A stretch of DNA of 61,741 bases, the filler included, from Hausera hauseri (Eukaryota), in the NCBI GenBank assembly GCA_046269625.1. It is 11 parts of 11 records of this genome, joined end to end, with 100 filler letters (N's around TTAATTAATTAA, not from the genome) between each part and the next. Parts side by side here need not be neighbours in the genome. Positions count along the whole stretch, not along the records: positions 11,922 to 18,134 come from JBJURY010125095.1; 10 more parts are not named here. The stretch is one strand, 5' to 3'. How positions within the stretch are numbered: position 1 is the first letter of the stretch; each line of letters opens with the position of its first letter. The notes beneath the pieces are model-generated. The model had not been told where the DNA came from, did no database searches, and saw nothing but the letters and a program-made list of their open reading frames with translations. Shown one piece after another: positions 11,922 to 55,543 of the stretch. Both the position numbers and the translations under genes were made by a program.

Positions 11922-11968
11922 TCATTGATGCCAGTACCCAGAGTGATCCGGAGGACCGAATCCTTCTC

Positions 11969-11981
11969 AAAAGGGGGAGAA
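11969..11981 (+). other. Polypurine tract of LTR retroelement (copy 1)
   Basis: AAAAGGGGGAGAA immediately before TGTTAC; preceding 40 nt nearly identical to 52771-52823. Confidence 0.85.
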
Positions 11982-12671
11982 CTGTTACGACTCCTTAAAC
12001 AACATTTTGGACAAACCCCTTCGTGAAAACAACATTTTGGACAAAACTCTTCGATAAGAATTTATTGATAAAAATGTACATTTACACTTCACATTAGTAA
12101 TGTTGATGACTATTAAATGATTTTGAACATTTTGTACATTTATGATTTTGAACATTTTGTATATTTGAAATGAAATAAATCATTATCTTTGCCCATTATC
12201 TTCTTATCTGTTATCCTTCATTATAATATGTTAAGTCCCACATGATGGACATCCCTATTTTCTCTGTATTTTGTACAATTGATGTACCCCTAACCTTGTT
12301 GGTGAACTGAGAAGATACGTGTTCAGTAGAATAAAAAGAAATATTGCGAATTGTGGAGTGAGAATTGTGGAGTTTGTGGAATTGGAATGAATAGTTGAAA
12401 CGATTTGTTAAAAAATTAGAATGAATTATATGAATTATTGAATTAAATTAATAAAATCGTTATGTGAATTATTATAAGTAGAAATAAATTATTATATCAG
12501 ATTAATTATTATATTTCCATGAAATCATTATAAATTTCGATTTGGAATATTGAAAATAAAGTTTGGAATATATCAGATTAATTATTATATTTCAATGAAA
12601 TCATTATAAATTTCGATTTGGAATATTGAAAATAAAGTTTGGAATTTCCAAACACAGTAACAAAAATAGAA

Positions 12672-12732
12672 TGACGTCATTTTATTTTTAAAATGACGTC
12701 ACTCCCAAAATAGAACCAGGTAACTATATATA
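12672..12732 (+). promoter_or_regulatory. LTR promoter: two CRE palindromes and TATA box
   Basis: TGACGTCA at 12672-12679 and 12694-12701; TATATATA at 12725-12732; a 44-nt GT-AG intron (12804-12847) follows. Confidence 0.65.
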
Positions 12733-12851
12733 CCGTTGTGAAGTTCTTACAACAACATTATCTTAACCTCAACATATTTAATTCTCAAACTTGGAATTCG
12801 AAGGTTAGGTCTTATGCTGAATTTTTAAATGATTGTGATTATGCTAGGACC

Positions 12852-12903
12852 ATGGCCGTAAACAATAATGACGCTTCTACTAGTTCGTTGGAATCAGTAT
12901 CGG
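12852..12903 (+). CDS. Common leader exon, 17 codons + 1 nt (MAVNNNDASTSSLESVS, phase-1 donor)
   Basis: Kozak-like ACCATGG; ends G|GTACGT in phase 1, matching the phase of all downstream cassette acceptors; same-length counterpart at 53834-53885. Confidence 0.75.
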
Positions 12904-15096
12904 GTACGTGTATTCTCCGTTCACTTATTTTTGGTTTTATTTTATTTTTGTTGTAAATTTGTATTGATAATAAAATCTTATAAAATCAAATTGGAACGGC
13001 GTGATGACGGACAAGACAGTGTAGACCATGAATTGAAAGTTATTTAAGAAAGTCAGAGGGACTCGGATATGTGATGCCATCAATTGAGGATAAACCTAGG
13101 ATGAAATGATAAAAGATCGAAAGATATTCGAAATGTCGGAAGAACAGAGATAAAGATAAATCCCTTGAAATTTCGAGAGTGGTTATGAATAAATGTGTTG
13201 ATAGCTATTGTGGTTTGATCATGATATTTACAGTATTGACGATTATTACGGTTCGGTCATAATGTTTACAGCATTGATGATTATTATGATTCGATTGCAA
13301 TATATTTAGAGTATTAGCGAAGAATTTATTCAGCACAAGGCTGATTAAAAACCGTTTCATTTTTATGAATTTTAGATTTGATTCAGAGTAAAATAAGATC
13401 TGATATTTGGAGGACGGAACCCTTTGATGACGTATCGTTATGGTAATAACTATGATTGCGATGAGGCATATGAATTCGATGATATTTGGTGAAGTCGGCG
13501 GAGACGATAAATTGTGCGCATCTATTTGTATGACCGGATTGTGTGCATTTATTTTGTGTTTACATTTAGTTTGATTCTTAGTATTTGATTTCGTGTCGAT
13601 AAATTTGAAGTGTCTGCATTCAAATAGATAAGTCGGCGATGTACACGTTTTGTCTCCAAGGCATGGTGTATCTCTACGCGGTCAGGATCTAAATATACTT
13701 GTTGATGGTCATTTTATAAATATGTATGTGCATATAAACGCGCATTACACGATACCGGATGAAGAAGCACATACTAGTTGAATATATGATACATTCGAAT
13801 CACAATATCAGGATACCGCACACGTTTTCTGGACTTTGTATTTTCTCTGAATAAAGATTTTAAACGAATATTTTCAGTAGCAGCAGGAATACTCAATTTC
13901 GTATGAAATACGATTTTATTGTCTTGCATTTTCTAAACCTTAAAGCAATCAATGTAATCGTCTCAACCCAAAACTATTTCAATCTTGTTGATTATACGGA
14001 AATAATACATGTCACTGAACTGTTCTTCGCGTGAAACACATCATGAGAGTGTGTAATTGCATGCTTCTAATGAACGACATTTGGGAAATTTATTCTACAA
14101 AATATTTAACTTGATATTTTGAGTAATCCCTGAAATTCTAACGATATCATTGATATCACCTGACCTTCCTGTATTGTTACTATGTTTTGTATGTATATGT
14201 GAATGTTCTGTAAATTTAATGATCCCATGATATTTGGTACGTTTGGTGCAAGAGATTGTTGCGACGTCTGGCATTCTGAGGAGGAGTTTTGGGGACTGGG
14301 ACTCCCTCATAAAACCCGACTTCAAATCTCTTTTGATTTTAAGAAGGAAGAGTACGCCCATGATTGGCACATTTTAGAGTTATGTAGCATTACTTGAATA
14401 CGTAAGGTGTTTAATTTCCTTAGTGTATTTCGTAATCCAAATGATTGAGTTGGTGATATACAAGATTCCAATAATCAATATTCGAGGTGTTTAATTGTTT
14501 TAGTGTATTGCGTAATCCATTTTTTGGCCCGGGTGTATATTGATTATTGAATTCAGGACAAAGACGAGATTATAAGATGATACGACAATACCCTACCTCC
14601 TCTTATTATTTATTATATGATTACATAGAATGAGCTCTCAGCCGCTGACTTCTATTACCATACTTAAGGATAATTCCCCTCACTGCATTTAAATTGACTT
14701 ATAACCGGGACAGGAATTAATATATTTCGATTAAATTACCTCAGAGGATAAGAAGGATTCATGATGATAGACGATATAGAAAAATTTCGAAAACAATGGA
14801 ACTCACAAACCTTCAGGTCAGGAGACAAACGGAGATACCCCGATCAATTAGCAAGGAGCAGGTGTATTGGGTAGAAGTACCTTATGTTTGAGAAAACTCA
14901 AGATTGGATCAATAACAGTAAGGTGAAACTGATTTAATGAAGAAATATATATTTATTTCGGACTCGTGAAAAATGATCTTTTTAAGCAGAGGAGTTTGGA
15001 TGAAAGCGAGTAATGGGAATGCGAACGGATGTGAATTATTTATATGTTAGGTACTGTTTAAGGTTACATTAACCCCTGTACCACCAACATATAAAC

Positions 15097-15114
15097 TGGT
15101 GCCCCGAGTGAGGA
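15097..15114 (+). other. Primer-binding site complementary to elongator tRNA-Met
   Basis: TGGTGCCCCGAGTGAGGA matches 17/18 to the complement of the vertebrate elongator tRNA-Met 3' end as I recall it (TGGTGCCCCGTGTGAGGA); first 15 nt identical at 55489. Confidence 0.82.
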
Positions 15115-15176
15115 CACCATATTGATAAAATGAACAATAATTTTAAATAAAATTGTTATATAAATTTGAAATTTAG

Positions 15177-15463
15177 ATGACGATCCATATGCACCATTGA
15201 AATGCGAAATATGTTATGGACTACTTGGGAGGAACTATGCGTTACTGCGATGTACGCATATTATGTGTGTTAGGTGCGCGGACCATTGGCTGTCAAAAAG
15301 TCAAACGTGTCCTTTTTGCAGAAGAAGGACCAGTTCCTATCAGTCCAGAGGGATAACTATAGTGGTAATTTATGATGGTGAAGAAGACGAGAATCCGGCA
15401 GAAGGAGACCAACATGACTTATATGTATATGGGCCTAACGGGCTAGTCTATATGCCCATTTGA
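15177..15463 (+). CDS. Cassette A: C3HC4 RING-finger terminal exon
   Basis: Acceptor atttag|, phase 1; CEIC..CTH.MCVRC..CPFC; in-frame TGA at 15167 and no in-frame ATG before the first Cys; AATAAA 15471. Confidence 0.9.
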
Positions 15464-15541
15464 TAATTATAATAAAGCTGTTTTCAAGATTGATTGATAT
15501 TGAAGAATTAGAATTGATAATATTGAAATGAACATATTTAG

Positions 15542-15783
15542 GATGTATCATATGTAAAAAACTAGAAGAGGATCAAAATGAAGGAATTCAATGCCCGCTA
15601 TGTGAGTTTATCGAAAAATTGGATCAGTCAGAAGATTCGTTCACATGCGCCTACTGCGAACAGGATGTGAGTTTGGGCCTGATGACCATGGACGATGAGT
15701 GTTTTTTGTTGTGTCCTGTATGTGCCCTGACATGTGATGATATATGGGAAATTAAAAATTTGGCAGGAATCCCTGACTTGTGA
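15542..15783 (+). CDS. Cassette B: four-CxxC zinc-binding protein terminal exon (not in ORF track)
   Basis: Acceptor atttag|, phase 1; GCIICKK..QCPLCEFIEK..FTCAYCEQ..LLCPVCAL..IPDL*; homologous to 56034-56254; AATAAA 15798. Confidence 0.85.
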
Positions 15784-15892
15784 ATAATTATGAGTTTAAT
15801 AAATCTTGGCATTTGAAATTTGTTTCACTAATTGGAAGAAATTATTTATAATGAAAATAGAATATAATAGGAATAAACTATTACTGTTTAAG

Positions 15893-16350
15893 GAAATGGA
15901 AACGGAAATAGAAACGGAAATGAAAATGGAATGGAAACCAAAAAATGCCCTATTTGCCTGGAAGAAGTAGCAACCCAAAAAACAATATTACCTTGCAGAC
16001 ACCAGTACTGCACAGCCTGTATCGATACCTGGATGATGGTACAAAATACCTGCCCATGTTGCAGAAGAGCATACGTTTTATGCTGGCTATGCTATCAACT
16101 GATATCCGACGACATTGTAGAACTCTCTTGCAAGCACACATTTTGTAAGGAGTGCATCAAAACCCATGTTGAAACATACCAATTATGCCCGTATTGCTAT
16201 GAAGACATTGATTACTATATGATAGAAGGGATGATCGTGTATCTGAACATTATTGAACAACCAACTATGACATTAGTGATTGATGAAGATGATGGCAGTT
16301 GGCCAGAAGCGTGGAGAAATCCACAACCATATATATTAGATATAAATTGA
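15893..16350 (+). CDS. Cassette C: tandem double RING-finger terminal exon
   Basis: Acceptor tttaag|, phase 1; two back-to-back C3HC4 RINGs (CPIC..CRH.YCTAC..CPCC, CWLC..CKH.FCKEC..CPYC); AATAAA 16355. Confidence 0.9.
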
Positions 16351-16400
16351 AATTAATAAAATTTATCATAGTGAGTTGCTTATTCTCTTTATTATTTAAG

Positions 16401-16696
16401 GTTATTTCCCCGACTTGAATTCCGTACCTGTTTTATCACACGGATTTCAACAGAAAGTAAATCACTATTATTCCATCTATAATCCAAATGGAAAATTCAC
16501 CGCAATAGGAAAAGAATGCACAATATGTCTCAACAATTACTCCACCAACCCAGTTGAGTTAATATCCTGCAAACACCAATTCTGTCGCTGCTGTATAAAG
16601 GAGTGGTTTATTAACAATAACACTTGTCCGACATGCCGTACAATTAACAAACTGTTCTTGTACGAATATAAATATTATACCATAAAGAATTTATAA
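16401..16696 (+). CDS. Cassette D: RING-finger terminal exon
   Basis: Acceptor tttaag|, phase 1; CTIC..CKH.FCRCC..CPTC; the frame has no ATG at all and an in-frame TAA at 16397; AATAAA overlaps the stop (16696). Confidence 0.9.
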
Positions 16697-16743
16697 ATAA
16701 AATTTGTTTAAAGTTCTGATTTTTGAAATATAATGCATTGTAG

Positions 16744-17966
16744 ACGAGATAAAAGAAATGAAAAAGGTTCAATTTCAAACTCCCAGATATTGCGAATATA
16801 CCAAATCAGTGCAACCTAATACAATACAGTACATCCTATGTTATCAGAATAGACAATTCGGACCAGCCTCATTCATTAAGAAACGGATAACCTACTCTAA
16901 AATGACAGTGTCAGACAGCTCCATGAAAGATACACAAAATAGAAAGATATCGTTTCTAGAACATCCAAATTCACCCGTCCCGGGAGAACTAGCTCAATTA
17001 TATGCCAACGCCGGATTATTCCGAACCACAGCAGGAGAGATAAAATGTTTATACTGTCAGGGAGAATTTCAATATGAACAATTAAAAAATAGACCGAAAG
17101 AAGAACATAAGAAACTGCGCGCCACTTGTCCCTACATACTAGATGTAGATGTAGGCAATATACCACTCATCGACACATTTACTAGGAAGCCCGACCTGGA
17201 TCCAGACGCTAAGTACGACGAAATAATATCTGCACAAATAGTTTATTCAATCGATAATATAGTAGCAGAAAATATACAATTAATATCGGATACAGTACAA
17301 GACAGAAAATTAACTTTTCAAGGGAATAGAAAAATGAAGCATTTGGCCCGACAAGGATTGATATCGATATTCAAAGAAGGAACACAATACGTCAAATGTA
17401 CTAAATGTCTTAAGGAAACATATTGGTTGGAAGAAATCGACCAGCGATGCCCGGCAGTGTTACATACCAACAAATGCGAGTACTCAGTATATAAAATATC
17501 CGATAATAATACTAAAAAACAATGTAGAATACAATTTAACACAGGAAAACTGTATGAATGTTATCAAGATAGTCCTGTGGCCATATCGGTAATATCAAGA
17601 CATCCTACCAAAAGAGAAAACATACTACAGTATATTAAACATCAAACGGAAACTCAGCCCGATTGGTCGCCAAATGTATTCGACCTGTGTCAAAATCTAA
17701 ATTTTATTGATCCAGAGAAAGAAAGAGAACCTGAGCGAAATATTCTTGACAATCTTTACCTTCGCGATTTGGAGTGTGTAATCTGCTACACGGATGTGGC
17801 ACAAGTTATCTTCTTACCTTGTGGTCATTTGAAAACCTGCGAAAATTGTTCAAGTCAAACAACAAACTGTCCGGTCTGTAGAAGCAACATAGAGAGACGA
17901 GTGACGTATTTTCAGTTCTCGGAAGAAATTAGTGAAATAACTTTGACAAATATGGACCTTGACTAA
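16744..17966 (+). CDS. Cassette E: inhibitor-of-apoptosis-like protein (BIR, degenerate BIR, RING)
   Basis: Acceptor ttgtag|, phase 1. BIR1 RKISF..AG..CLYC-x16-H-x6-C; second BIR-like RKLTF..CTKC..H..C; IAP-type RING CVIC..FLPCGHLKTCENC..CPVCR. No internal intron needed. AATAAA 17988. Confidence 0.92.
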
Positions 17967-18041
17967 TAATTAATGTGAATTTATTTGAATAAACATTATT
18001 TACGAATTTGTTGAGTTAAAGTTAAAATAGACTTATTCTAG

Positions 18042-18134
18042 AATCTTCGATTATCGATAACATGACTTTGCCCAACCTCAACGACTGGATAATCCAAGTG
18101 ATGACGATAAAGAATCAACCACCTAAATTAGCAT
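18042..18134 (+). CDS. Cassette F: start of a further phase-1 exon, truncated by contig end, product unknown
   Basis: Acceptor ttctag| about 50 nt after the IAP AATAAA; phase-1 frame ESSIIDNMTLPNLNDWIIQV... is open to the contig end (only about 30 codons). Confidence 0.55.
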
Positions 18135-18234
18135 NNNNNNNNNNNNNNNNNNNNNNNNNNNNNNNNNNNNNNNNNNNNTTAATTAATTAANNNNNNNNNN
18201 NNNNNNNNNNNNNNNNNNNNNNNNNNNNNNNNNN

Positions 18235-18400: not shown

Positions 18401-20237
18401 CAAAAAAATACTATTAACAAAATCAAAAAAATAACAATCGACAATATCACCGATTCATCCTAAGTAAAAAATACTAAAATTAAAATTTCTTAACATTTTC
18501 ATGAATTCATCTATACAAAAATAAAGATAGCAGAATGAAAAGAGGAGAATCACAAGTGCCGAAGTGACCAACACTTTGTGATAAACAACAAAAATTTGTT
18601 TAAATCCACAGTTTAAAGCTAGTTGTTTTATAATCAAAAAGAATTATTTAAAAAATCTGAAAAAGAATTTTTCGAAAAAACAATTCCAGAAAGTTCCGAA
18701 AAACTATCATTAAACATTCTCAAAGTATCGTCTGTTCGCCACTACAAGAACAAAACCACGACCAAACCTGGTGAACCCATAATCAGGGAACAGGAGAAGT
18801 CAAGTGTGCCTGTTCCGCCTCCCGCCAAGCCCAAAATTGGTGAACCAATCACCCGAAACGAAGGCACGGCAATCACGTCGAAACCGGAAGCCAATTGCGA
18901 AGTCAGATTCAACAAAGTCATCAATTTGACATCGGGGTATTGGATCCCTACGTGATATTAACCAGTACTGGCGAGAATACAGGACCCAGGCGACAGTTAA
19001 GTCTTAACCCTCAAGCCAGACCAGCCATGCTTGACCCGGTGAGTCACCGTCTCCCGCGGAAGACGACGCTGTAACCCCGACAAGCGAGCCCAGTACCGAT
19101 CCTATTCGGACTTTCTGATGGTACGGGAGCTGTTGCAACGGAGCCGTTTCGTACGGCTCTTTGCCAGGTTGGGACGAGATGATTCCTACTCCTTACCTGT
19201 GGGAACCCTCCACCGGTTTTACGACGACGGAGAAAATTGACGACTTTTCGATTCATCGGTTTTCCTGCCGGACTTCCTAAGACTTATGGCGGCCGCCGAC
19301 TGCCTTTTCGAATCGCTGACTCCCTCAGAGAGCCAGTTGATTCCGGAACGCCGAATCCCTGAAAAGCGGCGGACAAGGACTTCGAGCTCTGATGAAACAC
19401 CAATTCCGTGTCGCAGACGCCGCTTAGATCCGACACGACGGAAAGCCGCACGGATGGATTCAAATTCGGACGATACTCCGACTTGTCCACGCCGAAGTCC
19501 AAGGATTAATCCGGCCCTGTCCTTACCCGAATACTCCTACGCCTCGGCGGACGATTCACGAGAATTTAATAAAAATTACTCTCGTTATTTTTTCGTCTTC
19601 CATATTTTTGTTTCAGTCGTTTTATTCGACTGTATTTACATGTTTTCCCGTTTTTTGATTGAAAGTTCCATCCACAAGGAGAAGAACTCTAAAATGGTGG
19701 CAGGGGTTACCGCATTAACGCCTTATAACACAAACGCAGCCTTTGAAATAAATCCGTCTCAAACACTGCACAAAACCTTTGATAGCATTCAGGCTCAAAT
19801 TCACACAAGTGCCGTAGAAACTAATCCGGTCACATTCGTGCATCACCAAACATGATCACGTAATACCCACAAACAGTTGTATCACCAAAATCAACTGCAA
19901 TCAGAAATTTACAACGCGTGACAGTGAACAAGTGTTAAAATATTCTAGCACTAACACATGCGTCAACACCGTCAAATCGGAATACAAACCCGATTATACG
20001 AACCGCTACAAAATAGCACACACAAGCAAAAAGTCGCTATTTAACGATTCACCCAATCGTCAGTCGACTGAACTCGCCAAACGAAGTACAACTCATTGTA
20101 CAAAATTGGCGTCATACGAAAGCTCATCGCTTTCCATCCACTCTAGATATGTCGCGAATGCTGGGAGTTTTAAACCAACAATATCCCGAGCATACATTGC
20201 GCAATCAATACAATTTTCATAGACAATAACATTATAC

Positions 20238-23200
20238 TGGGGGCTCCAAAACTAAAAGGAGGCGTTGACATCCACAAGCCCTACAAAAAAGCTGAAACTG
20301 CTTCAGCATCACCGGCTAAACCACCCTAATTCGCGTGTCCCACCTTCATAGGTTCAGACGGAACTGCATTGAAGTGGTTCCATGTGTTTGAAACATGGGC
20401 TACTCAATGCAGCATCACGAGCCAACTAAACAAGGCCTTAACATTAATACAATACCTGCAGCCAACAACGCTTGCAGCAACAACGGATCTGGACACGTTA
20501 TTGTCAGATGAAAAGCCGTTTGGCAGAATCAAAGCATATCTGCCATCCCAACAAGACCAGTTCAACTTGGTTTTAACCAAGCGACAGACATGGAATTTGA
20601 AACCTCCTCTGCTTCAAAAGTTACGCTCAGACTTGAGCAATGCTGAGTTGGACCTCCAAAGCAACCAGCACATACCACGGCGCTACTTCCTGAGTAGTTT
20701 GCCAAAGCAAATTCAAGCCGCCTATGTGCTATTACCGCCCGACACAACATTGAACGATATGACATTAAGCTGACAAAATATACGAGTGCATTAAAGGCAC
20801 CGTAGAATCTGCACTAACGCAAAACATAAACTCCGTCATAGCGGCCTAGCACAATCAGTTGGACACGATTATTGTCGCCCTGTAGGCACTTGTAACGCAC
20901 AAGAATCTGCCAGCCAAGGACAGACCGTCATCTCGGCGCCAATCCCAAAGAGAAAGTAAGGCAAATTTTCCAAAATTTGCCATTTCCACACTCGATTTGA
21001 CGAATCCGCCTACAAATCTTATCTTGGTTGCCAATTCGACAAGTCGTCGGCAAATATAAAAATGCAACACTTGCATTTATCACAATCATTTCGGTCCGGA
21101 TGCAAAATCTGTCGACCTGGCTGCATATTTTAGAAGCCATCAAAAACTAAATGAGCTCGGCGACCAACGGCACGTCGACTGGAAACCCAATCACTACAAC
21201 TGCCGTACACAAATAACGAACGCATTGTCGATGCTATTTTTACTCTCAAGGCGGAGCCACTACACTCTGACATTTCGATACAACTAGATTTTCTAATCGA
21301 CAATGGTGCAGCTATATTGCCGATACTTAGCGCATGCGCTAGACCTACGCTGGTGTCACATGCATCACGCAATGCTGCCAGTGGCACGCGAATATCAACC
21401 ACAGGTACTCTGTACCTACAATTTTATCTCCAAGGCCGAGCATACGCTTGGTCATTCATATTGGCCGATGTCATGCAACCAATACTTGGTTCTGACTTCC
21501 TAGATCACTATGATCTTACCGTGGATTGCCGAAATCAACATCTCACCAGCGGGAGCAATCCATTACCTCCACCCGCACTCACGCTAACTATAAATGCGGT
21601 CACGGGCATAAAAATTGCCAATCCCATTGACATCGCACCATTGCTCCAAGCGCAATATCCTAACTTGTTGAAACGCTCAACACAACCAACTCAAAAAAAG
21701 GTGAAAACATCATCCTTTCTCGTCACATCATGTGATCGACCGATTCGGCAACCCCGGAAGGAGCTTGACCCTGTCAAGAGAGCAGCCGCGGAAGCCGAAT
21801 TCCGACACCTCGAAGAAGCAGGCATCATACGCCGCTCTACATCGCCATGGACATCACCATTGCACATGGTTCTTAAAAAGGACGGTTCATACCGGCCTTG
21901 TGGTAACTATAGAATGTTAAACAACGTCACCATCCACGATTCATACCAAACACCGTTGTTAACAGATATATTGCATCGTCTACATGGTGCCGCAATATTC
22001 AGTACAATTGATCTGGAAATGGCATACCACCAGATCCCATTTTCTAACAAAGACATTCCAAAAACGGCCGTAATAACGCCTTTTGGTTTGTTCGAGTATC
22101 TATGCATGGCCACAGTTCTCTTCCTGAACGGCTAGAAACCATCAAACAAATACCGAAGCTATTCACAGTGACTGGACGTCACAGTTTCCTTGGCACGATC
22201 AATTTCTGCCATCGCTACATTCCACACTGCTCGGAAATCCTTTCACCTCTATCTGCTCGAAACCAAGGACCCAAAAAATGCCAGGTAAACTGGAGGGATT
22301 AAAATGAACAGGCATTTGCTTTTTCACATACCTACACTACACTATCCTAAACGAGATGCACCTTTCATCTTAACAACAGATGCATCTACAATCGCTGCAG
22401 GCGCCATGTTTGCTCAATCAATAGATATCAAAAATGCTCCCATTGAATTTATTTCCCACAAATTCAATTCGGCTGTGCAACGCTATTCAACTTTCAACCG
22501 AGATTTACTAGTCATAATTCTTAGTGTCAAACACTTCACACATTTCCTCGAAGGAAATGTGTTCACAATCCGCATGGATCACAAACCGCTCATTCGCATG
22601 ATGAGTATGAAAAACCCATCTCCTCGTCAAGAGCGACACGTTATTTCTGTCAAAATTCTTATTCCAGATAGAACACATAACTGGAAAAGATAACAGTTGC
22701 TGATTTCTTTCCCAGAACTTGGATATCGACAATATCCTTTGACCAAATTTTCACGGAAGACGTTCTCCGATCGCACCCTCCACATGAAGATGATGTTACG
22801 TTCTTCAAAACAGTAGACACAAAGGATGGAATACACTACAATACCATCTTTAATGGTTGTCGACGCCAAATTCTTGCAGTGAACCTACGGAAACAGGCGT
22901 TTGACACCATTCACAGCATTCATCACCCTGGATAAAAAGCCACAGCTCGCCTATTAAGCAGTAGAGTTTGTTGGCCTCGCATGCTACGTGACATAAAGCA
23001 GTGGACAAAAGAATGCTCACTTTGCCAACAGTATAAATTCAACAAGACTACAACCACTAATCCTACACTATCCTACTGGCTCACGGTTTGAAACTATCCA
23101 CATGGATATAGTAGGACCACTTTCTGAATGTAACGCATATCAGTACATCCTAACCATTCTCGAGTGGAAAACAAGATGGCCCGAAGCCATTCCAATCCGC

Positions 23201-24289: not shown

Positions 24290-27200
24290 TTGGTAGGTCT
24301 ATTCACTGGCAGTTATAGTTTCATTCCAATTGTATTTTCGCATGAGATTTGATATGATAGTATTCTTCTGTCTGCTAAGAGGCAACATTGAAAAAGTGTG
24401 AAATGATGCAATTTTCTGATTGACAAAAATATAATTTGCTAGGTCACTCTGCCTGGATGGAATAAGAATAACTGAAGTCTGGAACGTCAAAATATGATGG
24501 ATCTGTTAATGGTGATTATATGTTGGAGATTTGGTTCATAATTGTGAATAATGACTTTTTTGACATGTAGGATCGTATGTCTAATACATAGACGTTGGTT
24601 CCAGCACTCTGACGAGAAACCGAGCTGCGCCAGCGACCATGGCACCACATCACCTCCCCTGTGTAGAAAAGAGACTGTAAAAGTGAAATGGAATGATGAA
24701 GATAATATGGATGAGAGCAATTGAGTCGTGAAAAGGAGCAATGTTTGGTGCCTATTCCGTTTTGGTATGAGTTAAGCGTTGTGTGCCATCAATAAACTTT
24801 TCTCTGCTGTACATATTGAATGTCACTTTACGTACCTTACTCGATGGATTAGCGCTGGGCTGTTGTGTGATATTTTGTGATGGGAGTGATAGTAAAGATG
24901 AGTCAAGCAAGAAAGGAGAGGAATGTTGTGAGCATGATGACGGACAGTGAAGTGAGACGGATGGAGGAAATGATGATGATTGAGTGTAGTCGAGTAGTGA
25001 TTGCTGCATCGACGCGAAATCGTTTAAAGTTAGTAGAATTACTAGCTGAGTTTGAATTAAGTGTAGAATTGTTATCTGGAATGTCGTCGATGAAAAAGGC
25101 AGGCTTCAGATTCGAAATGTGGGACTCTGTACGGTTTATCTTGGCATAAGATTGTTGCTGTGTGAAATGAAAGATTCAGCAGTTTGTACGGGCCAACATA
25201 CTGAGGTTTAAAACCAGAAGAAGATTGACCTTTTAACCACACAAACTTGGCGGAGTATAGATCCTTCGGAATGTAGGATTTGTTGTTATTAAAGAGGCGG
25301 CAGAATGAATATGAGCTGACCTCGACGAAATGAGATTGCGCTGCACGAATGTTCTTATCTATGGGGTTGTCGTCGAGATCAGAAAGTTCAAATAAAGCCC
25401 GAATTGGAGTCCCGAAAAATGCTTCGGCTGGAGCAGAACCGGTAGTGGTCAAAGGTGTGTTGCGCCAACCTAGCAGAACAAAAGGTAGAATGGACGTACA
25501 ATTACGATTAGTATCAGCCACGATTTTTAGAGAAATTTTCATTGTGCGATGAAACCTTTCGAGAAGGCCCTTTGCTTGGGAATGATATGAAGTAGTATGA
25601 AAATGGGACATCCACAAAAGTTTGACAAGTGATTTGAAAAGTTTAGACTCAAATTATGGACCTTAATCCGTTATTATGTACCGTGGGGAACCAAAGCGAT
25701 TGATCCAGATTTTAATAAAAGCGTCGGCTACTGAATCAATGTTTGATGAACGAAGAGGAACGGCTTCAGGCCAACGAGAAGCACGATCCATCATGGTAAG
25801 TATGTGCTGATATCCGTTGTCGGCATATAAAGGACCAACTAAATCAAGGTGAACTGTATGAAAGCGTGATGTACAGGGAAAGTGGTAAAGTGGTGATTTA
25901 AGATGTTTGTTAATCTTGTATTTTTGACAGGCAATGTATTCTTTGACCCAGTCTTGTACATCTTTGCGCATTGACGGCCATACTACATGACGTTGAAGCA
26001 GGCGAAAAGTAGCTTTGGAACCTGGATGATGGAGTGAATGCGCATGAACAAAAGCTGGCTTTTGTAAAGGTGGTGCTAGGATAACCTTTTTATTGCCTGT
26101 ATTAGATGTATCAAAAGCTATTCCATCAATGATCTCGTAGGATCTGAAAGAACTAAGGAGATCAACGGATGGTTGATTGGCCTTTAAGACTTCAGATGAG
26201 AAAATTGGCTCAACTGTAATGGATCTAACCGACCTCGATAGAAAGTAAGCTACCAAGTTATCCGTGCCTGAGATATATTCCAAAGTAAAACTGAACGTTG
26301 ATAGGTATGATATGTGTCTCTCTTGCCTTCCTGATAGCTCTTTTAACGACATGATGTGCGGCAGAGGCTTATGGTCAGTTTGAATTACGAATGGACGAGA
26401 GAGAAGTAAGTGTTTGAAATGTTTTACTGCCAGAACTATGGCAAGTAACTCGCGATCAAATGTGGAGTAACGGCTCTCAGGTTGTGTTAGTTTCCTAGAA
26501 TAGAATTCTAATGGCTCGTCGACACCATTAGAGATCTGGTGTAGTACAGCACCAATAGCTGTGGTAGAGGCATCGGTTGTAAGAATAAGATCTGCCTTGG
26601 GTTTTGGATAAGCCAGTATTTCAACTGTTTTAAGACCCTCACGTAAATGATCAAATTTGGTTGCCAAATGAGGAGTCCAGTGGATCAACTGTCTCTTTTT
26701 TCCTGAAGATAAATGTGCGAAAGGTGCCGTAAACTCAGAGCAATGAGGCACGTATTTGTGGATGAAATGGAGTGTGCCTAAAAAACTTCTCATGTCAGAG
26801 GTAGTTATTGGTAGAGTTATGTTCTTTAATTGTTGTAATCGATCCGGTTGTGGAGAGTGGCCGTTAGGAGTCATGACATGGCCTAGAAAATTAAAACGAT
26901 TTTGAAAGAAATGACACTTGGCGAAATTGACTTGCAAATTGCTATGATGTCATCTGTGAAAGATAACACGAAGGTGTTCCTGATGCTGTTTGACAGACGT
27001 AGAGGTAACTAGTATGTCATCAATATATGGATGAGCGAAATCTAGACCTGAGAGTACAGTATCAATGTGCCGTTGGAAAGTTTAAGAAGCACTACGTAAA
27101 CCAAATGGCATAAAGATATATTAGTAGAGGCCAAATGAAATAATGATAGCAGTTTTTGGAATATCATCATGTGAAACAGGAATTTGATGATATACTTTAT

Positions 27201-28272
27201 GCAAGTCAATTGTGGAGTACGTGTTAGTGTTGGTAAGGCTGTGCAGGATGTCATTTATAAGAGATAAAGAATACGCATCCATGACTGTTTGACTATTTAA
27301 CTGCCGATAATCACCGCATGGTCTGTATGTGCCATCTTTCTTCGTCACAACATGCAAAGGCGAAGCACATGGTGATTTGGATCGTCGATTTGAACTCTGA
27401 TTCAACAGCTTTTCGTCTGCGAAGTGAAAGTGGCCTTACCTTTTGTTTAATAGGTTTTTGGTGTTCGGTGACTATGTGGAGATATGTTGTAGAATGCGGC
27501 TTGAAATTGATCTCCTTCTTAAGAGTACGGGAACAAGAAGTTTTAATGTAGGATTTAAGGTCAGAACCCAACGATAAGAATGATGATGGCATATCATTAT
27601 AAGAGTCAGTTGCTGTAATTGATGTAGAATGACTAAATGCTTCATTAACGACATTTGGTTCAGCCGATTGTTTCAAGATTGCTCCCACTGGACGAGATTA
27701 AAAATACTGATAAATTGTTAAGTGTGTTGTTATCATCCGATGAACAGAATGTCAAATTGATATTTGAATGAACAGAGGAGGAAAAAGTGACCGACTGGTC
27801 GTTTGGTGAGCATTTGCTAGAATTTGCAACGAAATTTCTGCGCAGGATGCATTTATGCTGGCAGTCGACTAACAAATCGTATGTAGCTAGGAAATCGGAG
27901 CCTATTATTGGCGAAAATTCTCCTGGTAGGTTGGAGAATGTAAAGAACAGTTTTGTGGTACCTACAATGTTCAAAGGTTGACCACAGGCAGTGAAGAGTG
28001 GAGGAGAGAAAACTGTGTTAGATGTAGGAGCAAGAGACAAAGGAAGAAGTGAAAAAGCAGCTCCTGAATCAATAAGGAAATCTACGTGTGATGTGTCCCC
28101 AAATAATAGATCAGCTTTCAACAGGAAGACTGCAGAAGCGGTGTTGAAACGGCCAGTAGTTTGAACGATATTGCCTGTAACAGAATGTGCCGTGGCATCT
28201 GGTGGCATTATTGGTTTTTTGAGACTTGTTGGTATAAGGCGGAAGAATGGTGAGTACGCGGAGGCGAAGAAA
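24290..28272 (-). mobile_element. Decayed Ty3/Gypsy element: protease, RT, RNase H, integrase, PPT and 3' LTR
   Basis: FLIDSGA, YRPCGDYRQLN, YIDD about 27017-27028, LTTDAS, HLDLVGPL, ERFHRTMK. PPT AGGGGAGG (24653-24660) then TGTGGTG starting at 24649. Left LTR boundary uncertain. Confidence 0.93.
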
Positions 28273-30118: not shown

Positions 30119-30801
30119 CTACAAATCCCTGGGCAAATGGCACTGATCTTTGACAAACCACGTCCTGAGATCTGGATATGTCTTGTTCTTCTGATCTGTC
30201 CATAATTTCTTACAGACCTCACAGAATATGTTCTCACCAATAGATCGATACTTTGATTTCTCCATTAACATGGCCAGGTACTTTTGCTTGTCTTTAGAAA
30301 GATTCAATAAAAACGTCGCCAGATCTTCCGGAGTCTTGAAATCCGAAGCGTCAATAAAAGTATCGGGTGGGAAGAATCGTTTATAATCTGCACCTCCACG
30401 AACAACGGGTATCACGTCAACATTTTTAAAAATCTTGAAGAATTTTTCCGTGACGTAATCTTTACAGAGCGTGTTTTCAAAAGCCAGGTAGAAAAAATAT
30501 GATCTTGACAACATTGGCAAACACAAACTATCGTCTATAGCACGTTTGTTCAATCCTTTGGAGCAGTTATAAGTTCCACAGCTGCCGAAGACGTGGACGT
30601 CAAGTGACTTCTGCATACGTCTGACGTATTCATCTCTGCCACTGGACGTCCGGCAGTTACTAACGAACCAAGCAGCTGGAAATTTTTTGCTGTTGACTAT
30701 TTCGTGATAGTTCTTTTGAGGTAAGGGCTGTCTTGCTAATTTTCCATACATGTGTACAATGTCAGAGTCCAAACGGTAGGTCATTGTCCAATTGAACTGG
30801 C
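30119..30801 (-). CDS. Alpha-1,3-fucosyltransferase (GT10), last coding exon
   Basis: Acceptor ttctccag| at 30802-30803; FNWTMTYRLDSD, AWFVSNC, YFFYLAFENTLCKDYVTEKF (alpha-1,3-FucT motif), FIDASDF; open to stop. Confidence 0.93.
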
Positions 30802-31549
30802 CTGGAGAAAAAAATCTCGTAATTACTGGGAGTCGTTTTTTCCAATTCAAGTGTTAAAAAAGCTGTCAATTTAAATAAAACAGGGAGATATTGAAAATTA
30901 GAAGAAAGAGTAGAGTAAAAGGCGAAGGATGATTTGAGAAATAAAGAAAGAACAAAAAGAAGCAGAACACATACAGGAAATACAGGAATGTTTTATCAGT
31001 AATAAGATATATCCACACGATTTGAGGCGTATAATTTAATGTGGAGTTAGTGTCAACATGCTGTTCTTTTACCTACCTCACAGAACTAGGTCATGCTGTC
31101 GGCGTTACTTTCTCAGTTTGTCTAGCACCCAATTTTTAGGCTGTTTTGGCTATCTTCGTAATGGTCCCCAGATTTGATTAGGTTCTTTTTTTCTTTTTAA
31201 TTTTCTATCGTTATTTTCAGTGCTATCTTTAGTGTCCTCTTTTTTCATATTCCAACTGGTGCCCATCATAAAGCCATCTTCGAAATACGTTTTAGTTAAT
31301 TATATGTCGTGACTATTAATTCTACTGTATAATTGTTGCCATGTCATTTTGATGACATTTACTAAATACTTCCTGAATAGAAATGGCATGTGGTATGAAA
31401 TCGCACAGAATATGTCTCCCAATTTAACGAGAAAGTCCAGGATATATCGTTCTAGCCACTCTCCATCTTTCTGAATAGCAGAGTTGACAATGCACAATTT
31501 CGTTTTTAATCGTTGGCTTTGAAAATACTATTATCTAATTCATTATCAT

Positions 31550-37975: not shown

Positions 37976-38497
37976 TTGCACGCTTCATTGAGCACAAGGA
38001 TGGAACCACGAGACCAGAGTGTAGAACCAGGATTGCGAAGCTGTGTGACGTTAGGCGAAGATGACTTTATTACAACTGAGGTGCTGCGTAGGATACTAAA
38101 GGGTTCTCGCAACACAGCCCCAGAGCCTGATGGCATCCGATACGCAGACATAAGCAATCTATCGGATGAAGATAGGAATGAACTGGCCACAGAATTCAAC
38201 AACAGCATTGCAGACTGTGTGATGAAGGAATCCTGGCTACACAGTTACCTGTTACTGCTTCCCAAACCCCACAAAGACCACTCCCATATCAGCGGCTTTC
38301 GTATCATCATAATGCAGAATACCATCGGCAAATTGCTTGAAAAGATTGTCGCACGCAGACTGGCCTGGTATCTTGAATCCAACCACTTGCTCCCACCCAC
38401 AGGCGGCTGTCGATACAATAGAGAGACATGGTGTAAAGTTGCAGTCCTTACCTACGACGTATACGAAGGATTTCATGAAGGAGTAGACGTCTGTTAA
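37976..38497 (+). mobile_element. LINE reverse transcriptase N-terminal fragment
   Basis: APEPDGI, LPKPHKD..FRIIIMQNTIGKLLEKIV..RL..LE..LLP. Confidence 0.85.
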
Positions 38498-42358: not shown

Positions 42359-45346
42359 TTATCTCAAACGACAATGTCCGTACGCCCAACTCTTATATCG
42401 CCCCACCCACTTTTGCTTGATATCGTTGCATGACAAAGCAACCTTTTCATTTGTGATGGTATACAGCTGGTGCTCAATCGATCCTATGGTCGTTTGAGAC
42501 ATAACGACCTTTCCTCCTTCTCCGTCTTCTTGCCCATCATAGACACGGCGATAATCATTGGGATTTATTTCCGTCTGTTTCAGCTGGATGTCTTTTGTCC
42601 ACAGTCCATTAAAAGACTTTAACACTTTTGGCGCAAAAATATCCATTGCCTGTATTGAACCTGGCCTTCACTTTCGTCCTTCAAGCAGCCGATTTTGTTT
42701 ATTATCGCGCTGCTTTACAGTGGATGGTCCGGTGGGTAGTTGGATGTGTCCAGTAGTCCATCCGACATCACTTGTCGGAGCAGCTGGTCTCGATTGATGT
42801 TCTTCAGCTCAAGGAAAAAGTTATCTGTGTCACCGGCAACGGTACTGATCTCACAGCCGCCGCCGCCGCCGCCGCCAAGCAATTGCCGGTAACGTGCCAA
42901 GTTGCGATACTGGAACTCGTACATTCGCAACTTGCTCAGGTCCAATACAACTTGTCCGATGTAGCTTGGCCGGTCAATTATGACTTCTTCTTTGTTTAGA
43001 AGCATGGTGATCAATCCATCGGCAATGTGCATTGACCGGCTGAACTCAGCCTTGCTGGTGTACGTAACCAGTCGTTTTTCGTTATTTCACAGGCGCATAT
43101 TGAGCCGCTTCTTCAGATTTTTTACTGTTTCCCCGTAAAGTGAATTTTTTTGAACTCGTAATAGTCCTTTTCGAACTTTGTACAAGCTGCAGCTCGTTTC
43201 TCCGAATTTCCATCTATGTACACCTTGAATATCGGCGCCTGGTTGAAGCGGATTGCACGATGCAGCTGTGAGACGCGTACACCGAGCTGCATGTAAAACG
43301 GCAACAGACGCCAATGGATCACGTAATTCGATTTGGGTTCATGTGTCATGAGCAGTTTCTTTAATTCTGAGCCGCCGGGTGGACATTGGCTGATTGGTGC
43401 CATGGGTAATTCGTCCAGAGCGTCATGCAGCTTATCCGGTACCATGAGATCAACTTCCATTAGGTAGTCGACTGAGCTGTTTTCTGTCATGTTTGCTGCT
43501 GCTGCTGCTGCTGCTGGCAGACAGTCGGTACATTTCCGGGTCTTGTCGCAGCTCAATGTCCCTATCCAGTGACATTAGTGCCGATGCCGAACTCATTCCC
43601 GGTATTGAGTAAAAGTTGAGCGATTCCAACGTATCTTCCTCCAACGCTTAGCCCCAAATGCCTATAACACATTGGATAATAGGTACACATCGAGCTTTAG
43701 ATACTGAAGCATGTAGTCCAACATGTTTCTACAACCGAGTTCTGTCCAATATTACTGTGCTCTTTGATATTATCTTCTGTGATACCTGTCCATTGCGGCG
43801 TTAATTCCTCTGTTGTCCGCAGTCGCTCATATGACATGGAAAAGTCATACGGGAATATACCTTTGCTGCGTGCAATATGTGTGGGGAACTGCGTTAATGT
43901 TATTAGCACATTCGGCAAGGCATTTACCAGCTTAGCCTGCGATTCATTGAGAAATTGCAATGAATCGAAGAAGCGTACCTGGAACCGGTTTATGCGTGCT
44001 GTTAGGGACAGGTACTTCTCCATCGTTGTTGGGATTATGGATAGCTCCCAGTGCGAAAATTCATTTATGGCCCATTTTAGCATATGGTGACAGTCATAAC
44101 CCCTGAAGTTATGAAATATCACCGACAAGAATGGCCGCATCCGTCTTGCCAAATTGCATGCGTTGCATGCTGCTCCCAAGTATTGATTACTGAAATAATC
44201 GTGATCCGGTACGAGCCGTAACAGTGCGTCAAACGGTAATATTTTGTGGCACAGGTAACATTCGTCTGTCGCAGCGAACATCAGCGGTTCATATTCATCT
44301 GTCCAAATCAATGGTTTAGTGGAATTATTGCGATACCATGGTTCTATTTCCATTTCCACTATAGTTTCTAAACGCGGCAGGAAATCACATACACAGTTCC
44401 AGCCGTGAAAAGCGCAATACTGCGGCTGACCGACCGCTTTTATTGGGACAACCAACATACCAACGGCAATTGGAATGTGTTTTTGATCATACTCGTTGTG
44501 CCGTGGTAGAATTGCCTTAATATCGGCATATACTACATATGCCGGACTGTCCGTTTTCGATCAGTCACTGAATTGGACCTCCTTTTTGAGTGGCATGACG
44601 TAATGGTTGTTCCCGTTGAATTCTGCTTGAACAGCGCCACATGTTTCTCCCATGTTGTTTTTGTCCTGAAACCATGCAGACATGTAGGCCACCATTTACA
44701 CTGTATACACTTTTGGACAAACTGATGGTGATCCATGTTCAACAGTCGGGCCAAATTGGTCACTGCCATGTAATGGAACTTTTCTTTTGTTCCAGCAGTA
44801 ACAAATATATTGGACGTCCACTTGCGTTTCGACTTCGATATATTATGTCCACATGGGGGTTCTTATATATATATCTTCGTTTTCCGGTATTTCTACGATT
44901 GTATTATACCGCAACACATTTACTGCCAGTGCTGGATTACACCGTTCAAAAACCGGAATGGTTTTTAATTTCATCGGCATCCAGCATTCATTGAAATCCA
45001 ATTCGGAAAAGTACTGCCGTTACTGATTTGGTCGATTTTCACTATGTCTGTACACTTGGTCATATTTTATTACCGCCAGAATACTGTAAATAAAACAGTA
45101 TTTGTCGTCAATATTTTTTATATTCACTACTGCATGTGTATGCTGCAGGGCTGTAGGTGACGGTATGAATGATCTCCCGGACAGGTAAATTATGTCACTC
45201 AACTTTGTTACGATAAAGCGGAGAGTGACTATTTTTATAATTGGCCAGTCACTATCCTTTTTCGTGTAGTTGGCGATATTCTCCTCGAGCTTTTCTCTTA
45301 CATCGGCAATAAAATTGTCGGAATACGGTTCGGCTCGATGTGACAT
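42359..45346 (-). pseudogene. Protein-primed type-B DNA polymerase, Polinton/adintovirus-like, decayed
   Basis: In order across shifted frames: AVVNIKN..CFIYSILA, DHDY..GAACNACNL, FHNFRGYD, FFDSLQF, KGIFPY, LMEVDL..LHD, KNSLYG (motif B), GDTDNFF (motif C), DTSNYPPDHPL, terminal AYGH. Confidence 0.92.
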
Positions 45347-46001
45347 GTACCACTGTTTCCTGCACCTTGCACATTTTCAAATTCTGCAAGTGCATAATAT
45401 TGCACTTTGCAGTAGTGGTGTTGATGTTGTTTAATTTTCTCCACACATTATGCGGAACCTGTCCCAATTGCGTTGTTGTTGTTGTCGCCGACATGTTCGC
45501 TTTTATGTCCACGTACGATATGTTTAGGTCGTACTTGACAGTAATTGGCTGTTCCTGCTCCTGCTGCTGATGCCCTGTATTGCTGCTTTGTAGGTATTCG
45601 TCAAGACTTGTTGATTCTTGACCTTTCCTGCTTGTTGAGGGAATACTGCTTTTGTTTTCTGCCTCCATTAATATTTTATTTTTCGACCTCTGAAACTGGT
45701 TCAAGTGGTCCTGGTGCATATTGTAAAATTGTTCATAGTTGATTTCATCATCAACTATAGAACAACCGGGACAAATATAGGCCCGTTTACTGTGCACCGT
45801 TGTGGCGCCATAGTATTGTTCCATTGCATTATGGCAATTATCAACGTTGTGCACTGTACTTGTAGAGTACCGTGGGTACATGGGACAATGCACTAGCATC
45901 ATCTTCTTCGACCGTGTTGTAAACGGTCCGAGATGATGCTTGTGCATTTTATAAAAGTCGACATGGGCATTGCGTTGAAATACTGCATGTTGTACACACA
46001 T
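45252..46001 (-). CDS. Cys/His-rich ORF upstream of PolB, probably its frameshifted N-terminal region
   Basis: Internal repeat (FYKMHKHHL / FYNMHQDHL), CPGC; overlaps the PolB frame. Confidence 0.4.
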   Translation of the reverse strand: MCVQHAVFQRNAHVDFYKMHKHHLGPFTTRSKKMMLVHCPMYPRYSTSTVHNVDNCHNAMEQYYGATTVHSKRAYICPGCSIVDDEINYEQFYNMHQDHLNQFQRSKNKILMEAENKSSIPSTSRKGQESTSLDEYLQSSNTGHQQQEQEQPITVKYDLNISYVDIKANMSATTTTTQLGQVPHNVWRKLNNINTTTAKCNIMHLQNLKMCKVQETVVHVTSSRTVFRQFYCRCKRKARGEYRQLHEKG

Positions 46002-46530
46002 GCGTGTCCCTGTCTACTTTTTAATATTTCGCCATCTGTTGATGGCACTGTTCTGTCTCTTCATGTATGCCAGAGACGCAATACATTGGATATTGATTGC
46101 ATTTCTGAATGAGAAGCAAATCAAAGTAAATGTTAAACGTCATACAAATAAATATGTATAAACCCATTTATAATTTAAACTAAAATTCACTTAATTCCAC
46201 GCACCTTATACCGCTCCTTTTATGGTGGTTGTTGTTGTTGTTGTTATGGTGGTGGTGGTGGTGGTGATCTGAGGGCTTAACTTACTCAGCTATAAACATT
46301 TGCCATTCTCAGCACTTAATTTGTATAAATTAAATGAAAGAGTATATTGAAAGTGAAATTCACAGATTGACCAATGACATTTTACCGGACATGTGTTTGA
46401 TGTACAGTACCTATGTGAGCTGACAGAAACNNNNNNNNNNNNNNNNNNNNNNNNNNNNNNNNNNNNNNNNNNNNTTAATTAATTAANNNNNNNNNNNNNN
46501 NNNNNNNNNNNNNNNNNNNNNNNNNNNNNN

Positions 46531-47950
46531 TCCTTCGTTCCTTCGTTCTTTCATTCGTTCCTTCGTTCGTTCGATACTTCTTTCCTTCCTTCCTTCGTTT
46601 CTTCGTTCTTTCTTTCCTACTTTCGTTTGTTCCTTCTTTTTTGCGTTCCTTCTTTCATTCGTTCCTACTTTCTTTCGTTCCTTCGTTCTTTCGTTCGTTC
46701 GTTCGTTCCTTTCTTCCTTCCTTCCTTCCTTCCTTTGTTCCTTCGTTCCTTCGTTCCTTCTTTCGTTCGTTCCTTCATTTTTTCTTTCCTTCGTTCGTTT
46801 CTTTCTTTTTTCCTTCCTTTCTTCCTTCGTTCTCTCTTTTGTTCCTTCGTTCTTTCGTTCGTTCTTTCGTTCCTTCGATCCTTCTTTCCTTCATTCCTTC
46901 GTTCCTTCGTTCTTTCTTTCGTTCTTTTGTTCGTTCCTTCGTTTTTGCATTTGTTCCTTCGTTCTTTCCTTCTTTCCTTCGATCGTTGGTTCCTTCTTTC
47001 CTTCCTTCCTTTGTTCGTTCGTTCGTTCGATCTTTCTTTCGATCGTTCGTTCGTTCCTTCTTTCCTTCGTTCCATCTTTACTTCGTTCGTTCCTTCCTTC
47101 ATTTGTTCGTTCGTTCCTTTGTTCATTCATTCGTTCGTTTATTCGTTCCTTCGTTCATTCTTTACTTCTTTCCGCCGTTCCTTCGTTTCTTCGTTCTTTC
47201 GTTCGTTCGTTCTTTCGTTCTTTCGTTTTTTTCTTCTTTCCTTCGTTCCTTCATTCCTTCTTTCGTTTCTTCGTTTGTTCTTACTTTCTTTCGTTCCTTC
47301 GTTCCTTTGTTCTTTCGTTCGTTCCTTCGTTCTTTCGTTCCTTCTTTCCTTCCTTCCTTCGTTCTTTCGTTTCTTCGTTCGTTCGTTCCTTCGTTAGTTC
47401 GTTCGTTCGTTCGTTCTTTCTTTCGTTCCTACTTTCTTTCGGTCCTTCGTTCCTTCGTTCTTTCGTTCATTCCTTCGTTCGTTCGTTCCTTCTTTCCTTC
47501 GTTCCTTTGTCCTTCGTTCCTTCTTTCGTTCGTTCTTTCGTTCCTTCGATCCTTCTTTCCTTCTTTCTTCATTCCTTCGTTCTTTCTTTCGTTCTTTCGT
47601 TCGTTCCTTCGTTTTTACGTTCGTTCTTTCGTTCGTTCCTTCGTTCCTTTGTTCCTTGGTTCCTTCCTTCCTTTCTTCCTTCTTTCGTTCGTTCGTTTGA
47701 TCTTTCGTTCGTTCGTTCCTTCGTTCGATCATTCGTTCTTTCGTTCGTTCCTTCATTCCTTCTTTCCTTCGTTCGTTCGTTCCTTCCTTCCTTTCTTCCT
47801 TCCTTCCTTCCTTCGTTCTCTCTTTCCTTTTTTTGATTCTGCGTTCGTTCTTTCGTTCGTTCGTTTTTTTTTCTTTCTTTCGTTCGTTTTTTCGTTCCTT
47901 CTTTCATTCGTTCTTTCGTTCGTTCTTTCGTTTTTTCGTTCCTTCGTTCA
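46531..47950. repeat. 1.4-kb compound tetranucleotide microsatellite (TTCG/TTCC/TTCT)
   Basis: Almost A-free plus strand built of TTCN units. Confidence 0.98.
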
Positions 47951-47976
47951 TTTTCTTTGCACATTTTTCATATTGG

Positions 47977-49062
47977 TCTGATCGTGATGCAGCTATAATA
48001 TGAAATGCTCAACTACTGATGGGCTACGTGCTCATTCCATTTCCACAGCCAGCATACTTGAACAATGGGAAATTTTACCGATTGAAATTTTACAATCAAA
48101 TTTTCCCCATGTTCCCATGGTCAGACCGAATTGAAATTGTGTGCATTTGACTCATCGACATTCATTTGAAATTGGCACTAAACATTGCAAAATTCGTAAC
48201 TCGTGTCTCGTTTCTCGTAGAACATTTCCTGTTTTGCTTCTTTTGCTTTTAGCGCCGCCCGGTTACATTTTTGCCTCTCACTGCGCTACAAAATGTTTTT
48301 CCACTCTAAGAGCTCTCCCAATTTCCGTCGGTGACTTGTGCGACATGTGACATGTGCTGACGGCTTAGGGGCAAGTCTCCGACCAAAAAACATGAAATGC
48401 TCAGAATTGCGAGATAGATGGGGAAAACTTGGTACGAAGTCGATCTGAGAACTTCTGGGAAAGTGGGCTGGAGCCCCCACTTCTACCTACTTTTTAACAA
48501 CATGATTTTGACTTAAACTTTTAACAATGCGTTTTTTCGGTTCGTTTGTTCGTTCGGTGGCTATTTTCATCTGTATCCTTTCGTCTGATCGTGAGGCGGC
48601 TATAACATGAAATGCTGAACTACTGATGGGCTATGAGCTTAACCTATTTCCATCGCTGTTTGACTTGTGTAATGGTAAATTTCCCCTGTTTGAAATTTTC
48701 CCATCGATTTTTACCCATGTTCCCATGGTCTGATTGAATTGTGTCCATGTTCATTGGATTCGCCAACATGAATTTACCCTTTGTACATATGTTTTCAGTG
48801 CTAGCAGCACATTTCTGGTTACGCGTGGCGCATTTTCTGTTTTGCTTCTTCCTCTTCTAGCGCCTCTCCATTACATTTCTCAAAGCCGCACCGCTAAAAC
48901 CTTTTGCTCAGCTTGTCACTCGCTATCGATATTACTCGGTACAAAATCCATTGCTCGACCTCCTTTTCGGCCATTGGGGGGGGGGTCGTAGGAAAATTTT
49001 AGTGAAATTCTCGAAATAGCCAGTCAGATGGGGAAAACTAGTCGGCTGGCCAATCAGAAAAG
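47977..49062. repeat. Diverged tandem repeat, unit about 607 bp
   Basis: tctgatcgtga..gctataa..tgaaatgct.aactactgatgggcta at 47977 and 48584; ccatgttcccatggtc and agatggggaaaact also recur. Confidence 0.85.
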
Positions 49063-55481: not shown

Positions 55482-55488
55482 TATAGAC

Positions 55489-55503
55489 TGGTGCCCCGAG
55501 TGA
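55489..55503 (+). other. Primer-binding site (tRNA-Met), copy 2
   Basis: TGGTGCCCCGAGTGA, identical to 15097-15111. Confidence 0.8.
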
Positions 55504-55543
55504 ATAATTTTAGGAGAAATTTTACTTGAATTTTGAAATTTAG

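Follow-up and report, generated by a model that had tools for sequence, protein, structure and literature searches.

A BIR-BIR-RING IAP probably carried as an accessory gene by a large LTR retrotransposon with many copies

Baculovirus and other large-DNA-virus IAPs combine two BIRs and a RING in an uninterrupted ORF that is borne by a selfish carrier. Among retrotransposons, the planarian Burro/GYPSM1 giant Ty3/gypsy elements are described as bearing BIR, RING, and BCL2-like motifs (PMC6431247), and the B-IAP of Burro1 is reported to guard against caspase-mediated apoptosis in stem cells (PMC13465017, citing Lee et al. 2026 Dev Cell). An element-borne IAP is the basis of the host-transposon mutualism reported for planarians. 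In Cer1, the accessory protein CERV is described as the product of a spliced element mRNA that competes with the unspliced genomic RNA (PMC10309623). For the cellular proteins, the tail Phe of cIAP1 is reported to act in trans within the dimer during ubiquitin transfer (PMC6349121), and the residues given as paving the BIR groove for IBM binding include W310 and an acidic residue at position 314 (PMC6360406). RING-type IAPs are reported to have been lost in the sampled Platyhelminthes, in a paper in which a term search found no free-living flatworms (PMC13159474); if the host of the locus described here is a flatworm, elements may therefore be a refuge for these proteins.

The window, meaning the whole stretch of DNA that was analyzed, is 61,741 nt long; its 11 pieces are strung together by 10 linkers of one form, N44-TTAATTAATTAA-N44. 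Because the linkers are artificial, any finding that spans one of them is an artefact, and as judged from their gene content the pieces need not come from one host; the snail-like gene on piece 5 indicates that the assembly does not contain flatworm DNA only. The features of the IAP locus, which lies on piece 2, are collected in Table 1. The IAP is probably carried as an accessory gene by a Burro-type LTR retrotransposon that is large and present in many copies. It is predicted to be spliced from the LTR transcript and to act as a ubiquitin ligase that would dampen cell-death or stress signaling where the element is active; carriage by an LTR element, taken alone, is much safer than this full mechanism.

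Table 1. Coordinates of the IAP locus, its carrier element, and the joints of the window
Feature	Position	Strand	Remarks
Linker starts	11822, 18135, 23358, 28273, 32407, 36801, 41675, 46431, 52074, 57099		
Piece 2, home of the IAP	11922-18134		ends 168 bases past the IAP stop
Polypurine tract (PPT)	11969-11981	+	directly before LTR; identical 13-mer at 52810-52822, piece 10
Single LTR-like repeat	11983-15089	+	3,107 bp; TGTT...AACA, between PPT and PBS; putative 3' boundary
Candidate promoter	12672-12731	+	two TGACGTCA palindromes and TATA-like box; putative function
Candidate shared coding leader	12852-12903	+	ATG, 17 codons plus one base, then phase-1 GT donor at 12903
Primer-binding site (PBS), tRNA-Met type	15097-15113	+	7-base spacer after AACA
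Cassette 1, RING	15177-15463	+	acceptor 15176; no ATG before domain; AATAAA 15471
Cassette 2, Cys-rich, zinc-finger-like	15542-15783	+	no confident family; acceptor 15541; AATAAA 15798
Cassette 3, two RING domains	15893-16350	+	acceptor 15892; AATAAA 16355
Cassette 4, RING	16401-16696	+	acceptor 16400; frame without any Met; AATAAA at stop
Cassette 5, IAP	16744-17966	+	own ATG 16758; acceptor 16743; AATAAA 17988
BIR1	16920-17141	+	canonical zinc motif; changed at the equivalents of W310 and D/E314
BIR2	17313-17486	+	divergent spacing; four zinc ligands kept
Helical domain	17541-17717	+	aa 262-320; at position of IAP UBA domain
IAP-type RING	17775-17879	+	Arg after last Cys; Phe387 aligned to cIAP tail Phe
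C-terminal extension	17919-17963	+	15 aa, 5 acidic residues; not conserved
Artificial linker 3' of piece 2	18135-18234	.	
Piece 10, diverged paralogue	52174-57098	+	PPT, 2,658-bp LTR, PBS, cassettes 1 to 4; ends before IAP position

The IAP ORF (16758 to 17966, + strand) encodes 402 aa with zero in-frame stops, whereas the two remaining frames have 27 and 30, and it contains the canonical BIR, the degenerate BIR, and the IAP-type RING that the preliminary description had claimed for it. Position 16744, where the cassette begins, lies immediately 3' of an AG acceptor (16742-16743) in the reading frame of the ATG; the claim of a single exon thus holds for the ATG-led coding region, but a spliced leader upstream is likely. 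The core of BIR1 is exactly C-x2-C-x16-H-x6-C (aa 97 to 124), and the HMMER search proposed as a check gave 27.5 bits with the Pfam BIR model (cut-off, 22.9). The AlphaFold model of the whole IAP is poor (pLDDT 46); the model of BIR1 has a pLDDT of about 80 and superposes on BIR2 of BIRC2 (Z 9.4, rmsd 2.8, 76 residues aligned). BIR2 has the arrangement C214-x2-C217-x18-H236-x3-C240, with ligands that are invariant in all five aligned family members; it has no Pfam match and low confidence in the AlphaFold model, and hhalign against a profile of cellular BIRs gave a probability of 70.8% (E 3.8e-5), compared with <1% for two control regions. The helical domain is modeled with a pLDDT of 72 to 87 and aligns to the UBA of XIAP with a Z of 3.6, its UBA HMM scores falling below those of the best shuffles and hhalign giving 10% (E 0.003). 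The RING matches zf-C3HC4_3 at 52.9 bits (cut-off, 27), and its best matches among solved structures are the RINGs of cIAP1, cIAP2, and XIAP.

An acidic tail of roughly 20 aa had also been claimed to set the protein apart from most cellular IAPs. The extension is real, but it comprises 15 aa with 5 acidic residues, and its acidity is not conserved. An extension of this kind is rare among cellular IAPs: 130 of the 148 other RING-bearing matches end 13 residues past the last Cys, whereas the present IAP ends 28 residues past it. The corresponding tails in five relatives measure 13, 13, 27, 27, and 29 residues, and the family tolerates extension of the tail; the ends of these relatives are unrelated in sequence and non-acidic, which means that the family as a whole does not share an acidic regulatory tail.

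The residues expected to bind an IBM peptide are replaced in BIR1. In a comparison in gapless register, in which one family member has a 2-residue insertion, the canonical BIR cores of other matches keep Trp at the W310 equivalent in 388 of 401 cases and an acidic residue at the 314 equivalent in 367 of 401, and both are lost in the BIR1 of 4/4 family members, so that BIR1 lacks the W310 and acidic 314 pair of a type II (IBM-binding) BIR caspase inhibitor. With these groove residues lost, a role as an E3 ligase adaptor is more likely, to judge from these residues, than that of an XIAP-style caspase blocker. A direct caspase inhibitor of the XIAP or DIAP1 type, with BIR grooves that bind caspases or IAP antagonists, is the mechanism implied by the preliminary description; it would be compatible with carriage by an element and is the strongest of the alternatives, but the loss of both residues throughout the family and the still greater divergence of BIR2 make it unlikely. 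As a ubiquitin ligase, the IAP would derive its E3 activity from a RING dimer, and any anti-apoptotic effect would come from ubiquitination of bound partners and not from IBM-type caspase binding. Protection of the host cell from apoptosis by the element-borne IAP is plausible, with Burro1 B-IAP as a direct precedent that the preliminary description did not name, and the family lets one ask whether such a benefit needs caspase binding or ubiquitination alone.

The carrier has the hallmarks of an LTR retrotransposon, and it has them in two pieces: a TG...CA repeat with inverted ends, a PBS after it, and a PPT before it. Within the LTR of piece 2, two TGACGTCA palindromes, which we take to be CRE-like, lie 22 bases apart (12672-12701) upstream of a TATA-like box; a local depth peak in the bin 12546-12753 covers this region, which is possibly a stress- or wound-responsive promoter. 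The palindromes are missing from the LTR of piece 10, which keeps the PPT, ends, and PBS as in piece 2 and whose interior no longer aligns (score 25, under the 30 to 33 of the top shuffles). The PBS has 2 matches in the window versus 0.05 expected and agrees at 16/17 bases with a tRNA-Met PBS printed in PMC1084362. One LTR between PPT and PBS is what a collapsed LTR assembly or tandem elements give. In both paralogues a short frame stays open from before the PPT into the LTR (11924-11995 and 52680-52829), with a stretch of ~14 codons conserved. In piece 10, a RING frame (52398-52679) lies upstream of the PPT, preceded by frames that are interrupted; the element family carries RING cargo at its 3' end too.

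Between the PBS and the IAP are four frames, absent from the preliminary description, encoding in order a RING, a Cys-rich protein, a double RING, and a RING. All four are open in both paralogues, where they are 47 to 68% identical, and the codon comparison (pN 0.27 versus pS 0.85 over 386 codons) demonstrates purifying selection on them. Counting the IAP, the two pieces have nine cassettes, and the T-richest AG close to the frame start is in phase 1 in 9/9 of them, compared with 77/215 control frames; this acceptor rule was picked after inspection of the data and covers five independent cassette types only (any shared phase, ~0.013 by hand arithmetic), so it carries moderate weight. The AG overlaps an in-frame stop in three cassettes, which indicates that the frame opens at the acceptor. 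No Met precedes the first CxxC in 5/9 of the frames, one frame lacks Met altogether, and an own ATG is present in the IAP and in cassette 3 of piece 2. An AATAAA lies at the stop or at most 21 bases from it in eight of the nine cassettes; in the remaining one it shortly precedes the stop. The simplest reading suggests that the cassettes are alternative last exons that share one upstream coding exon. The candidate for this exon at 12852-12903, one of two such candidates among eight donor-like sites, is weakly supported; in piece 10, the stretch of leader-like size lacks a canonical donor, and its score of 9 is reached by 4/481 background starts. A splice donor inside the PBS was rejected, an in-frame stop lying just upstream in both pieces.

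The flatworm spliced leader ends in AUG. Trans-splicing of this leader as the source of the start codon was rejected by reasoning, since it needs phase-0 acceptors and all of those here are phase 1.

Under the explanation preferred here, transcription from the LTR would yield a short leader that is spliced to one of five alternative last exons, producing five short spliced mRNAs for small zinc or RING proteins and the IAP, and genomic RNA would require read-through of the internal poly(A) signals. How far the element favors accessory proteins over replication would then depend on which acceptor and poly(A) signal are chosen. Gag-pol would lie downstream of the IAP in an element of the Ty3/gypsy lineage, and the ligases may target host death or defense proteins, such that cells with an active element survive. 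A more specific version, which we put forward tentatively as a possibility, is a ubiquitin-ligase battery driven by one promoter: a stress-inducible LTR leader and five separately polyadenylated last exons would lie between primer site and gag, the last of them an IAP without caspase binding, and its capture may have taken place independently of that in planarian Burro, in a snail host for example.

Piece 2, which stops 168 bases after the IAP, has neither gag nor pol and no second LTR. An ATG-led frame (18062-18134) begins 95 bases after the IAP stop and is open to the end of the piece; it could be the next gene of the element. Piece 3 contains gypsy-type protease, RT, and RNase H frames that are separated from the IAP by a linker, and joining of the IAP to this gag-pol at 19 to 23 kb was rejected, both for the linker and for a PBS-like site of its own at 20238 before the gag-like frame. 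The claim that the IAP sits inside the element is accordingly borne out by the LTR and PBS on its own piece but not by the gag-pol across the artificial linker, and its retroelement-borne nature is supported by the PPT, LTR ends, PBS, paralogue, and many diverged copies, the gag-pol of the element not being on the piece. That gag-pol is found on neither piece 2 nor piece 10 would fit a non-autonomous LARD-like derivative, in which LTR, PBS, and cassettes have no gag-pol of their own and are mobilized by a partner, with expression as set out above. Both pieces simply end, however, Burro-type accessory ORFs are described as preceding the giant polyprotein (PMC6431247), and the purifying selection seen on the cassettes is not what passive cargo shows; a derivative of this kind seems quite improbable.

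The copies and relatives of the locus bear on where it came from. In three public runs, 4,429, 831, and 79 contigs map to piece 2, most of them less than 99% alike, and in run X1, which may be the source sample, only 817 reach at least 99%. Summed depth in X1 is 2,396 to 24,097 over the IAP, 24,343 at the LTR start, and 15 to 52 in the LTR middle, values that are not copy numbers. This pattern fits a large family of diverged repeats and does not fit a single-copy gene. The relatives of the IAP are five unnamed ENA proteins (four aligned, 25 to 54% identical), and named cellular IAPs match single domains only, the best covering 12 to 13% of the length. No IAP fused to a polyprotein was found in the best 150 of 9,101 representative matches, and searches of viral contigs and JGI metagenomes, with protein or with a DNA motif, gave no related loci. 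In the phylogeny that had been proposed as a check, the five ENA relatives and the IAP form a long-branch group apart from cellular IAPs, and no donor lineage could be named; the tree is of the RING, built by a quick method from 55 columns and 154/164 proteins, and the ten neighbors looked up are unnamed or are insect, echinoderm, or nemertean IAPs.

Origin as a fragment of a Polinton-like element or of an endogenous large DNA virus, in which the LTR signals arose by chance or were inserted, would account for the tight packing of intronless genes and the nearness of their poly(A) signals; among the Atlas look-alike clusters, one is 63% viral (score 0.83), which is no more than a lead, and Polinton-like polymerase pieces occur elsewhere in the window. 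It is nevertheless very unlikely, given that the PPT, TG...CA ends, and PBS are kept in two paralogues with saturated synonymous sites, that most cassettes have no start codon, and that there are no relatives among viral contigs. An ordinary host IAP gene, single copy or in a local tandem family, with an LTR inserted upstream would gain from the snail DNA in the window and from reports that molluscan IAPs are expanded and sometimes intronless (PMC8917759, PMC13159474), but it is scarcely credible in the face of the thousands of diverged contigs, which largely refute it, the short coverage by named cellular IAPs, and an acceptor and poly(A) design that is the same as in the other cassettes of the element. 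A single-copy host IAP in conserved synteny, the finding that the preliminary description named as contrary to its claim, is thus not what the locus presents, its neighbors being a PBS and element cassettes.

The known system closest to the element read as carrier of a spliced ligase is Burro1/GYPSM1, with which it shares a large LTR, many copies, an accessory region with BIR and RING, and other ubiquitin-related accessory domains, the accessory ORFs of Burro being described as upstream of the main ORF. It differs in its four extra RING/zinc cassettes, same-phase acceptors, own poly(A) signals, two BIRs, and altered IBM groove, a comparison in which Burro is known by description and not by the sequence of B-IAP; no Burro sequence was among the matches to the IAP, and there is no pol on piece 2. 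IAP cargo in LTR elements is already known, and the five-cassette layout and altered BIR groove are what set this case apart. The published descriptions searched yielded none of a multi-cassette RING array behind a PBS, and the Burro1 work may contain the layout. The protein resembles cIAP1/2, XIAP, and DIAP1 in its BIR fold, IAP-type RING, tail Phe, and helical domain at the UBA position (PMC6349121, PMC6360406), and unlike them it has lost the groove residues, has altered BIR2 spacing and a 15-aa extension, and is mobile and multi-copy. Like the IAPs of baculoviruses, it has two BIRs and a RING in an uninterrupted ORF of a selfish element; in contrast, its carrier has retrotransposon priming signals, and no viral relatives were found. 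As in CERV of Cer1 and complex retroviruses, the accessory protein would come from a spliced element mRNA, here a predicted one; unlike in Cer1, five predicted alternative last exons lie directly behind the PBS, each with a poly(A) signal and four of them RING-bearing. Such a cassette design, if RNA bears it out, is an unusual way of expressing many accessory proteins from a retroelement, and it raises the question of how five poly(A) signals are passed over in making genomic RNA. That the accessory ligases are intact and under selection in a divergent family shows that such cargo is maintained over long times.

Other pieces of the window hold further mobile and host-like sequence. Decayed Ty3/gypsy pol regions with interrupted frames occur three times (19241-22693, +; 25072-28271, -; 49773-51967, -), with a likeness of 65% between those of pieces 4 and 9 across 2 kb. 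A protein-primed DNA polymerase B that has an endonuclease VII-like insert, as in Polinton/Maverick-type elements, is present in fragments (42715-46013, -, and 60998-61741, -, the frame in piece 11 called by eye only), and LINE-type non-LTR RT fragments are present at 888-1340 (by eye) and 37976-38497 (weak Pfam match). A TTCC/TTCG microsatellite of 1.4 kb (46531-47980) is a source of spurious ORFs. On piece 5, an alpha-1,3-fucosyltransferase frame (30119-30853, -) has its best matches in pulmonate snails (Physella, Candidula, and Lymnaea), at 54 to 60%.
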